DNA of 64,000 nucleotides from Escherichia coli (GTDB lineage Bacteria; Pseudomonadota; Gammaproteobacteria; Enterobacterales; Enterobacteriaceae): NCBI RefSeq assembly GCF_050920415.1, contig NZ_CP169309.1. One strand, 5' to 3'. Shown one piece after another: positions 20,465 to 60,588 of the stretch. Positions within the stretch are counted from its first letter, which is position 1. Every line of letters begins with the position of its first letter. Under the pieces are notes generated by a model. The model did no database searches. It was given only the letters and a program-made list of their open reading frames with translations, and was not told the origin of the DNA. A program made the position numbers and the translations under genes.

Positions 20465-20551
20465 AAATAAAAAAACCTGCTGGTGAGGCAGGTTCTTTTA
20501 TTTACTACTTTCAGGCCTAACACCACGGCCTGTGCAACATCGTGTTCCAAC
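20465..20551 (-). ncRNA. orzO: candidate OrzO-like antitoxin sRNA (type I TA)
   Basis: Minus-strand sigma70-like promoter (TTGCAA-N17-TATAAT, -10 at 20563..20558) and minus-strand intrinsic terminator (stem 20474..20494 followed by a U-run in the RNA); the transcript 5' region is complementary (19 of 20 nt) to the zorO 5' UTR at 20699..20718; ends are predicted, not mapped. Confidence 0.45.
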
Positions 20552-43372: not shown

Positions 43373-43407
43373 CAGTACCTGATACTACCCCCCAGTAGAA
43401 TAATAGT
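43373..43407. promoter_or_regulatory. tandem RcnR operator sites in the rcnA-rcnR divergent promoter region
   Basis: TACT-C7-AGTA at 43373..43387 and TACT-A-C6-AGTA at 43393..43407, matching the known TACT-G6-N-AGTA RcnR site (reverse strand). Confidence 0.75.
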
Positions 43408-43445
43408 GCTATGATTTTTCATGTTCTTGTTAACCAGGTGTTGCC

Positions 43446-43718
43446 ATGTCTCATACAATCCGTGATAAACAGAAACTGAAAGCGCGTGCCAGTAAGATTC
43501 AGGGTCAGGTCGTGGCGCTCAAGAAAATGCTCGACGAGCCGCACGAATGCGCAGCTGTTCTACAACAGATTGCTGCTATCCGTGGCGCGGTAAACGGCCT
43601 GATGCGCGAAGTGATTAAGGGGCATCTGACGGAACACATCGTTCACCAGGGGGATGAGCTAAAACGTGAAGAAGATCTGGATGTCGTTCTGAAGGTGTTG
43701 GATTCATATATCAAATAA
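43446..43718 (+). CDS. rcnR: Ni/Co-responsive repressor (CsoR/RcnR family)
   Basis: 90 aa; divergent from rcnA. Confidence 0.9.
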
Positions 43719-43804
43719 TTTCACAACGTTATTGTAATACCGCCGTTTTTCCTCGTTTACAACGTGTGCGCGGGACATTACCATCCATCTCTGCGATTCA
43801 TCAT

Positions 43805-43940
43805 CGCAACCAAACGACTCGGGGTGCCCTTCTGCGTGAAGGCTGAGAAATACCCGTATCACCTGATCTGGATAATGCCAGCGTAGGGAAGTCACAGACC
43901 ACCAGGTCATTGCTTCTTCACGTTATGGCAGGAGCAAACT
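43805..43940 (+). promoter_or_regulatory. TPP (THI-box) riboswitch in the thiM leader
   Basis: Aptamer ctcggggtgcccttctgcgtgaaggctgagaaatacccgtatcacctgatctggataatgccagcgtagggaag at 43818..43891, with conserved CUGAGA and ACCUGAUCUGGAUAAUGCCAGCG elements; sits directly upstream of the thiM SD and ATG. Confidence 0.9.
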
Positions 43941-44729
43941 ATGCAAGTCGACCTGCTGAGTTCCGCGCAATCAGCGCACGCGTTAAACCTCTTTTACCAA
44001 CACTCTCCTCTTGTGCATTGCATGACCAATGATGTGGTGCAAACCTTTACTGCCAATACTTTACTGGTGCTCGGTGCATCGCCAGCGATGGTTATCGAAG
44101 CAGAAGAGGCCAGTCAATTTGCGGCTATCGCCAGTGCCTTGCTAATTAACGTTGGCACGCTGACGCAGCCACGCGCACAGGCAATGCGTGCTGCCGTTGA
44201 ACAGGCAACACACTCCCAAACGCCCTGGACGCTTGATCCGGTCGCGGTTGGCGCACTCGATTATCGTCGCCGTTTTTGTCATGAACTTTTATCTTTTAAA
44301 CCGGCAGCGATACGTGGTAATGCTTCGGAAATCATGGCATTAGCTGGCGTTGCTAATGGTGGACGGGGAGTGGATACCACTGACGCCGCGGCTAACGCGA
44401 TACCTGCTGCACAAACACTGGCACGGGAAACTGGCGCAATCGTCGTGGTCACTGGCGAGGTGGATTATATTACCGATGGTCGTCGCACCGTTGGCATTCA
44501 CGGCGGCGATCCGTTAATGACCAAAGTGGTAGGAACTGGCTGTGCATTATCGGCAGTTGTCGCTGCCTGTTGTGCATTACCAGGCGATATGCTGGAAAAT
44601 ATCGCATCTGCCTGTCACTGGATGAAACAAGCCGGAGAACGCGCCGTCGCCAGAAGTGAAGGGCCTGGCAGTTTTGTTCCCCATTTTCTTGATGCGCTCT
44701 GGCAATTGACGCAGGAGGTGCAGGCGTGA
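43941..44729 (+). CDS. thiM: hydroxyethylthiazole kinase
   Basis: 262 aa; translation matches recalled ThiM; stop overlaps thiD start. Confidence 0.9.
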
Positions 44730-45526
44730 AACGAATTAACGCTCTGACGATTGCCGGTACTGATCCGAGTGGTGGTGCGGGGATTCAGGCCGATCTTAAA
44801 ACCTTCTCGGCACTTGGCGCTTATGGTTGTTCAGTAATAACCGCCCTGGTAGCGCAAAACACCCGAGGCGTGCAATCGGTGTATCGCATAGATCCTGATT
44901 TTGTCGCCGCGCAGTTGGATTCGGTGTTCACTGATGTGCGAATCGACACCACTAAAATCGGTATGTTGGCGGAAACCGATATTGTTGAAGCGGTGGCAGA
45001 ACGGTTGCAACGTTATCAGATCCAAAACGTGGTACTCGACACCGTTATGCTGGCAAAAAGCGGCGACCCGCTGCTTTCACCTTCGGCAGTTGCCACGCTA
45101 CGCAGTCGATTATTGCCATATGTTTCATTAATAACGCCAAACTTGCCCGAAGCAGCCGCCTTGCTCGACGCGCCACACGCGCGCACCGAACAGGAAATGC
45201 TGGAACAAGGGCGATCGCTGTTGGCGATGGGCTGTGGCGCAGTGCTAATGAAAGGTGGTCATCTGGATGATGAGCAAAGCCCGGACTGGCTGTTTACCCG
45301 CGAGGGTGAACAACGGTTTACCGCACCGCGCATTATGACCAAAAACACTCACGGCACTGGTTGTACGCTCTCTGCGGCGTTGGCTGCACTGCGCCCGCGC
45401 CATACAAACTGGGCTGACACCGTACAGGAGGCAAAAAGCTGGCTTTCATCGGCATTAGCCCAAGCCGACACGCTGGAAGTTGGTCACGGTATTGGTCCGG
45501 TTCACCACTTCCACGCCTGGTGGTGA
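44726..45526 (+). CDS. thiD: hydroxymethylpyrimidine / phosphomethylpyrimidine kinase
   Basis: 266 aa; PfkB-like ribokinase-fold kinase. Confidence 0.9.
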
Positions 45527-51749: not shown

Positions 51750-51885
51750 ACTACCCCGTAGGGCGGATAAGGCGTTCACACCGCATCCGGCAACCTATGC
51801 CTGATGCGACGCTGAAGCGTCTTATCATGCCTACACAGCGCTGCCCCGTAGGCCGGATAAGGCGTTCGCGCCGCATCTGACATAA
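51750..51885. repeat. REP/BIME elements
   Basis: Two copies of the gccggataaggcgttc(a/g)c(a/g)ccgcatc palindrome family between fbaB and gatY. Confidence 0.8.
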
Positions 51886-60417: not shown

Positions 60418-60504
60418 AAAAAATAAGCCCGTGTAAGGGAGATTACACAGGCTAAGGAGGTGGTTCCTGGTACAGCTAGCATTTTATGGGTTATGTTTTT
60501 CAGC
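60418..60504 (-). ncRNA. cyaR: CyaR (RyeE) Hfq-dependent sRNA
   Basis: Reverse complement of 60418..60504 reads gctgaaaaacataacccataaaatgctagctgtaccaggaaccacctccttagcctgtgtaatctcccttacacgggcttatttttt, matching recalled CyaR including its terminator hairpin and U-tail. Confidence 0.85.
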
Positions 60505-60588
60505 GAAACGGATGATAACCTTAATAAATGCAGCTGTATGTGATCGGTTTCTAAGAATTTTCCATCCGGGAAAAATAATCGAAATTAA

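Follow-up and report, generated by a model that had tools for sequence, protein, structure and literature searches.

The thiMD leader and its gene context

The stretch of DNA analysed here, 64 kb in length and referred to as the window, is part of an E. coli chromosome and shows the gene order rcnR, riboswitch, thiM-thiD. The two thiamine genes and the main elements upstream of them are as follows.

43756-43784, plus strand: promoter-like -35/-10 pair (TTTACA, 17 nt, TACCAT) found by a consensus scan; putative promoter
43791-43940, plus strand: thiM 5' leader, from the presumed transcription start to the base before the AUG, 148/150 identical to K-12
43815-43894, plus strand: TPP aptamer, P1 to P5, delimited by the RF00059 match, the consensus pairs and the identity to K-12
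43941-44729, plus strand: thiM, hydroxyethylthiazole kinase, 262 aa; an ORF with a TIGR00694 score of 330 bits (cut-off 256) and this RefSeq name in a strain identical over 43700-43990
44726-45526, plus strand: thiD, hydroxymethylpyrimidine/phosphomethylpyrimidine kinase (HMP/HMP-P kinase); an ORF with a TIGR00097 score of 360.7 bits (cut-off 205) and RefSeq annotation

The initial annotation had recognized a thiM TPP riboswitch in this region and had proposed an Rfam covariance-model search as a check. With the models of Rfam release 15, for which the curated gathering score is the membership threshold, RF00059 (TPP) matches positions 43810-43906 of the plus strand with 71.5 bits, not below but well above the gathering score of 54.3. 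The E-value of 4.2e-12, calculated for both strands of the 64-kb window, is far beyond chance. The match spans the full model (positions 1-105) without truncation, and it is the only TPP match in the window. The aptamer ends 47 nt 5' of the thiM AUG and therefore lies in the leader of a thiamine-salvage gene. ThiM and ThiD are both NCBIfam equivalogs, and the GTG start codon of thiD overlaps the thiM stop by 4 nt. Family membership, gene context and near-identity to K-12 are established by this analysis. The element is the thiM TPP riboswitch of E. coli, which belongs to the type that acts by sequestration of the Shine-Dalgarno (SD) sequence, and its proposed identity is borne out by the covariance model, the RefSeq annotation and the K-12 comparison alike.

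A 291-nt query (43700-43990) was matched in 5424 of the 5426 complete E. coli genomes. Only strain MFDS1022581 is 100% identical over this interval, and its RefSeq record gives the order rcnB, rcnA, rcnR, "TPP riboswitch", thiM, thiD, yegX, yegW. The same "TPP riboswitch" annotation is present in the RefSeq record of a K-12 derivative. The statement that annotation does not capture the element is thus correct for an annotation of coding sequences only, but not for the NCBI pipeline, which already marks the riboswitch. The thiM TPP riboswitch is a textbook case, one of the founding riboswitches and among the most studied. The initial annotation rightly described it as known biology; the copy in the window, annotated in public genomes like its counterparts, is intact but ordinary. 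By itself it adds very little, and serves mainly as a positive control for recognition from raw sequence, which here succeeded with nearly correct limits.

When the consensus structure is mapped onto the sequence, helices P1 to P5 can form, and the optional P3a insert is absent. Standard base pairs are found at 21 of the 23 consensus pairs placed, the exceptions being C43815/A43894 and C43829/A43840. P1 is built from 43816-43819 and 43890-43893, with the non-canonical C43815/A43894 in addition. The aptamer had been described as intact, which it is, but with limits (43818-43891) that clip the outer two pairs of P1, a helix that reaches 43816/43893. The CTGAGA motif is located at 43843-43848, and the P4/P5 arm, ACCTGATCTGGATAATGCCAGCG, at 43861-43883. 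Both ligand-sensing motifs, CUGAGA in the pyrimidine-sensor arm and ACCUGAUCUGGAUAAUGCCAGCG...GGGA in the pyrophosphate-sensor arm, are present and identical to those of the K-12 aptamer; we take their role as ligand contacts to be established structural knowledge of the thiM aptamer. The entire segment 43800-43895 is identical to the K-12 aptamer region. On the strength of this identity, the RNA would be expected to bind TPP, as published for the K-12 thiM aptamer (PMC1920254, PMC2018614).

The window also contains Rfam matches to other RNAs. The OrzO-P antitoxin sRNA is found at 20469-20544 on the minus strand (98.9 bits, gathering score 60), which implies a zor-orz type I toxin-antitoxin locus nearby, and the CyaR sRNA at 60421-60506, also on the minus strand (100.7 bits). 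Three plus-strand matches to naRNA4 (REP-like repeats) are located at 829-906, 928-1005 and 51761-51831, with 76.9, 81.8 and 60.0 bits, respectively.

Expression platform and two-state folding

The elements between the aptamer and the early part of thiM are listed below.

43876-43894, plus strand: anti-anti-SD, made of aptamer 3' residues (3' strands of P5, P4 and P1, including GGGAAG), which pair with the anti-SD in the free MFE structure
43896, plus strand: rare A (G in K-12) in the linker between P1 and the platform, recognized by 33-mer counts
43897-43908, plus strand: linker hairpin GACC-ACCA-GGUC, predicted by folding; the same bases pair with ORF positions 43950-43958 in the longer OFF-state fold
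43910-43920, plus strand: anti-SD segment with the core CUUC at 43913-43916, which pairs with 43926-43937 when the aptamer is enforced
43930-43934, plus strand: SD sequence AGGAG, assigned from the sequence and equivalent to the RBS mutated as G142C in PMC5499598
43941-43962, plus strand: AUG and first thiM codons, part of the sequestering structure according to the aptamer-enforced fold and PMC5499598
43964-44061, plus strand: counterpart of the K-12 rut site and stem-loop (thiM codons 9-40, nt 174-271), mapped from PMC5499598; putative function

Published positions were converted with nt = coordinate - 43805 for PMC1920254, as fixed by G100/G101 and the SD at nt 126-129, and with nt = coordinate - 43790 for PMC5499598, as derived from G142C (an SD G, 43932) and U152A (the U of the AUG, 43942). 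The latter numbering implies a transcription start at 43791, 7 nt past the -10 hexamer of the one promoter-like site in a suitable position, both hexamers of which are identical to K-12.

Folded without constraints, the segment 43805-43960 adopts an MFE structure in which 43876-43894 pairs with 43911-43930. This is the pairing of the published TPP-free model, in which nt 71-86 pair with nt 108-125 (PMC1920254). For the other state, the Rfam aptamer pairs were enforced in the folding as a stand-in for ligand binding. In the resulting structure, 43910-43920 pairs with 43926-43937, 43900-43908 with codons 4-6 (43950-43958), and 43938-43940 with 43946-43948. The probability that the SD is unpaired is about 0.54-0.67 in the free ensemble, compared to 0.01 with the aptamer enforced. 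As isolated duplexes, the anti-anti-SD/anti-SD pairing is worth -18.2 kcal/mol, and the anti-SD/SD pairing -9.5 kcal/mol. The pairing of the anti-SD with the SD and its pairing with the aptamer strand are mutually exclusive, a prediction made by folding in silico only. The computed structures reproduce the published ON and OFF states (PMC1920254, PMC5499598).

The sequence elements named in the initial annotation are all in place: ggaag at 43887-43891, cttcttcacg at 43913-43922, ggcaggag at 43927-43934 and the ATG at 43941-43943. Their roles need some correction. The combination ggaag...cttcttcacg had been proposed as the anti-SD. The cttc tract deserves this name, but ggaag is inside the aptamer and is the anti-anti-SD. 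Similarly, the platform had been described as abutting the SD, in an interval that ended at 43940. It does adjoin the SD, but extends further, including the SD itself, the AUG and about 20 nt of the ORF up to about 43962. This agrees with the K-12 work, in which residues 151-172 (equivalent to 43941-43962) belong to the expression platform and to the stem that sequesters the RBS and AUG (PMC5499598).

Without the aptamer constraint, the predicted structure is more stable by about 13 kcal/mol than with it. Switching therefore does not follow from thermodynamics alone, and the energy of ligand binding and tertiary contacts as well as co-transcriptional timing must be invoked. We infer that ligand energy and co-transcriptional timing decide the outcome, in agreement with the co-transcriptional binding invoked in PMC5499598. 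The stability of the whole leader does not exceed that of shuffled sequences (z = -0.45), an uninformative result, as expected because the RNA has two competing folds. In the unconstrained fold, the 5' strand of P1 (CGACU, 43815-43819) is predicted to pair with AGUCG in thiM codons 2-4 (43946-43950), which mimics the 3' strand of P1.

The predicted pairings suggest the following mechanism. At low TPP, the aptamer residues 43876-43894, including GGGAAG, would pair with the anti-SD (43911-43930). The SD (43930-43934) and the AUG (43941) would then be free, so that thiM and the overlapping thiD could be translated. TPP bound to the nascent aptamer (43815-43894) would lock P1, P4 and P5. The locked aptamer would release the anti-SD segment 43910-43920 with its CUUC core, which could then pair with 43926-43937. 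With 43900-43908 paired to the first codons (43950-43958), the SD and AUG would be buried and initiation blocked. The absence of translation would then, by analogy with K-12, expose a C-rich rut region (codons 9-34) on the mRNA, and termination by Rho would lower the amount of thiMD mRNA. Repression in vivo, like TPP binding, the Rho step and promoter use, is carried over from published K-12 experiments or inferred.

In K-12, TPP-dependent repression has been shown with a 6-codon translational fusion, and repressed translation exposes the rut site in thiM codons 9-34, which leads to Rho-dependent termination at nt 231, 237 and 262 (PMC5499598). The initial claim of translational control is supported by the folding and by the K-12 literature, but is not the whole story in view of this Rho layer (PMC5499598). 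The equivalent region of the window, 43964-44061, keeps its composition, with 30 C and 16 G compared to 33 and 16 in K-12, but differs by 10 substitutions; Rho loading is not reliably predictable from sequence. A 10-bp stem-loop in this region is kept, with -11.2 kcal/mol compared to -13.6 kcal/mol in K-12; one of its stem pairs becomes G-U. By analogy, the Rho-dependent second layer is probably retained.

An effect on mRNA could also be expected if control were exerted mainly by an intrinsic terminator and antiterminator instead of SD sequestration, as in many Firmicutes thi-box riboswitches. These share the aptamer family, and TPP lowers thiM mRNA in K-12 (PMC5499598). However, a scan of 43400-44200 for a hairpin with a T-run did not identify an intrinsic terminator, and the sequence 3' of the aptamer complements the SD instead. 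Moreover, the effect on mRNA in K-12 is Rho-dependent and secondary to blocked translation (PMC5499598). We therefore consider control by a terminator highly improbable, and SD sequestration remains the preferred reading.

Conservation of the leader in Escherichia and other Enterobacterales

Compared to K-12, the leader of the window differs at 2 of 150 positions (43799 T>C and 43896 G>A), both outside the aptamer helices, the anti-SD and the SD. The flanking sequences are more diverged, with 11 differences in the 72 nt upstream of the transcription start and 33 in the first 318 nt of thiM (about 10%), 24 of the latter at third codon positions. The contrast between the leader (2/150) and the third codon positions of thiM (24/106) is significant (Fisher p = 1.7e-8). 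Other Escherichia lineages agree with this pattern, with 96.7-98% identity in the leader and 84-92% in the thiM coding sequence. The values for the comparison with the window are 98.0% and 91.8% for E. whittamii, and 96.7% and 83.7% for E. albertii. A divergence from K-12 of 1.3% in the leader, as opposed to about 23% at the neighbouring third codon positions, demonstrates purifying selection on the leader. The clarity of this case is a mildly useful by-product of the analysis.

In principle, conservation of 43791-43940 could stem from a small coding ORF or an antisense gene rather than from RNA structure. The six-frame list does contain two ORFs that overlap the region, 43764-43886 on the plus strand (40 aa) and 43704-43910 on the minus strand (68 aa). 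Neither is annotated in RefSeq, and the one on the plus strand starts upstream of the presumed transcription start at 43791. The covariance model explains the conservation, including the changes on both sides of P3. A coding origin has therefore only a minute probability, and we attribute the conservation to the RNA.

The rare leader allele raises a different question. With the aptamer intact, 43896 G>A and 43799 T>C might have altered or abolished switching, so that thiMD would be constitutively expressed or permanently repressed. Only 8 of 5426 E. coli genomes contain the 33-mer with A at 43896, compared to 5385 for the K-12 33-mer. The position is part of the P1-to-platform linker, where a substitution could influence folding kinetics, and nearby mutations of K-12 G100/G101 (43905-43906) abolish control, but not binding (PMC1920254). 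Against an effect, 43896 is unpaired in both predicted states, and the exchange of A and G changes energies by at most 0.4 kcal/mol and SD accessibility by no more than 0.01. Among Escherichia lineages with an otherwise conserved leader, the position varies naturally between A, G and C, and A is also found in E. whittamii and in E. coli strain E69. Loss or alteration of switching thus appears very unlikely. Folding does not predict a functional effect of 43896 G>A, and we treat the substitution as presumably neutral.

The sequence around the leader is unusually diverged from other E. coli. Over its first 318 nt, thiM shares 89.6% identity with K-12; its identity to two other strains is 93.2%, and identity of at least 99% over the 291-nt query is found in only 7 of the 5424 matching genomes. 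In the rcnR-thiM spacer, 68 of the 72 nt upstream of the transcription start align to E. whittamii, with 68/68 identities. Judging from these identities, the diverged thiM allele and spacer (43719-44729) suggest recombination with a cryptic Escherichia lineage around an integration hotspot.

More distant relatives were collected by a pattern scan of species-representative genomes for GCGTAGGGAA, a gap and a ThiM coding motif, which yielded at least 120 enterobacterial thiM loci. Among the matches listed, 113 distinct leaders from Citrobacter, Klebsiella, Enterobacter, Pantoea, Erwinia and other genera were aligned. The GGGAA and GGAG columns of this alignment are partly fixed by the search pattern and the start-codon filter, whereas CUUC was selected by no filter. 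In these 113 leaders among the matches listed, the aptamer helices are invariant except for P3, which is altered on both sides, and the anti-SD core CUUC varies little or not at all. In 112-113 of the 113, CUUC can pair with both the GGAG of the SD and the GAAG of the aptamer. The capacity for both pairings and its conservation are thus established. The stem columns of the linker hairpin change on both sides among relatives, in a region where the alignment is poor. The core pairs of the platform helices never vary, and the shuffle controls were exceeded for cells, but not for pair counts. Since the core helices are mostly invariant, only conservation is claimed, and not covariation.

When the relatives were folded singly, the SD was more accessible in the free than in the aptamer-masked state in only 80 of 116 among the matches listed. 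In many genera, simple folding predicts a GCCUG-type segment instead of CUUC as the SD partner. As a consequence, the exact geometry of the platform is confined to Escherichia and close genera, and per-sequence folding of the 116 relatives was dropped as support for the switch beyond Escherichia and its close relatives, in view of both the count of 80 and the partners other than CUUC. In Enterobacter, Kosakonia and Cedecea leaders (L006, L016, L031, L040 and many others), GCCUG(N)CC(GG), a segment in the 5' arm of the linker hairpin, complements (CC)GG(N)CAGG, which overlaps the SD. The platform architecture in these genera may, according to the predicted pairing, differ from the one in Escherichia. 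Two further leaders are aberrant. In Kluyvera genomosp. 3 (L058), the ATG that follows the SD and the conserved ThiM HCMTND motif are in different frames, which suggests a frameshift or an indel close to the 5' end of thiM. In Pseudocitrobacter faecalis (L022), the 5' two-thirds of the aptamer are replaced by unrelated sequence (breakpoint AATGCCAGCGTAGGGAAG), whereas the platform and thiM remain. This replacement may be another insertion or deletion event at the thiM aptamer site.

Integrase islands at the aptamer and comparison with known systems

The match to the thiM leader is split in a number of other E. coli genomes. The E. coli strain 503025 carries an island of about 7.8 kb inside the thiM aptamer, between two annotated TPP riboswitches (approximately L125 12299-20000). 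Its cargo includes a 435-aa tyrosine integrase, an HNH endonuclease, HTH proteins and a resolvase-family recombinase. Each end of the island is marked by a copy of an 82-nt perfect direct repeat (L125 12217-12298 and 20001-20082) that is identical to 43807-43888 of the window, that is, to the aptamer without the 3' strand of P1. The right copy forms a complete riboswitch in front of thiM, rebuilt by the integration. The left copy (L125 12220-12315) still scores 61.3 bits with RF00059, above the threshold, and has a degraded P1. It is located 66 nt upstream of the integrase gene (L125 12382-13689), and it is tempting to speculate that it could make integrase expression respond to TPP.

Other genomes add to this picture. 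A 75%-identical integrase, a pseudogene, is present at the same site in another strain. The 5424 matching E. coli genomes contain 5730 matching places, which leaves about 306 extra places; if these reflect such insertions, approximately 300 genomes would carry a second, partial copy of the aptamer. In E. coli 11PC, the thiM-proximal copy has its own P3-loop variant and lies behind an integrase remnant, which suggests that the island brings its own aptamer sequence. The P3 loop CTTCTTAAATGAAGG, together with a C>T exchange at the position of 43859 of the window, is shared by E. coli 11PC, Enterobacteriaceae bacterium RIT691 and Citrobacter sp. R56 (L004 1495-1646, L021 and L045), and aptamer 5' halves of this type may have been brought in by islands. 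A phage origin of the island integrase was considered, and discarded after a tblastn search found no match in 50,697 phage records.

In the window, the aptamer site is unoccupied. Going by the repeats in other strains, we see about even chances that the aptamer DNA at 43807-43888 also acts as an attachment site, here vacant, for a family of tyrosine-integrase islands. If so, the targeting logic known for tRNA and tmRNA genes would apply to a riboswitch. A literature search for thiM, or any riboswitch, as an integration site found no paper, which is not proof that such use is undescribed. The islands that target the thiM aptamer in other strains are a second, mildly useful by-product of this analysis.

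As for the window itself, 43791-43962 is almost certainly the leader of the thiMD operon with the thiM TPP riboswitch, under two-state control of SD and AUG accessibility, with a Rho step by analogy with K-12. Its closest known counterpart is the E. coli K-12 thiM riboswitch, at the same locus, with identical aptamer helices, anti-SD, SD and AUG and the same predicted ON and OFF pairings. The two differ by the two substitutions in the leader, the 11 in the 72 nt upstream, a thiM allele that is about 10% diverged, and one pair of the rut hairpin that is G-U here.

The Firmicutes thi-box riboswitches use the same aptamer family and ligand, and control an intrinsic terminator. Unlike these, the element in the window lacks an intrinsic terminator, and would, as in K-12, act by sequestration of the SD and AUG and then by Rho. 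The E. coli thiC and thiB (tbpA) riboswitches also have the same aptamer family and reportedly follow the same logic, in which translation is repressed and mRNA is affected secondarily (PMC5234074, PMC11487190, PMC10578472). They belong to other loci and have other expression platforms, and neither is present in the window. Finally, the thiM leaders of other Enterobacterales (113 among the matches listed) share the aptamer, the CUUC(U) tract, the GGAG SD and a distance from P1 to the AUG of about 135-143 nt, and differ from the leader in the window in the linker hairpin and in the flanks of the sequestering helix.
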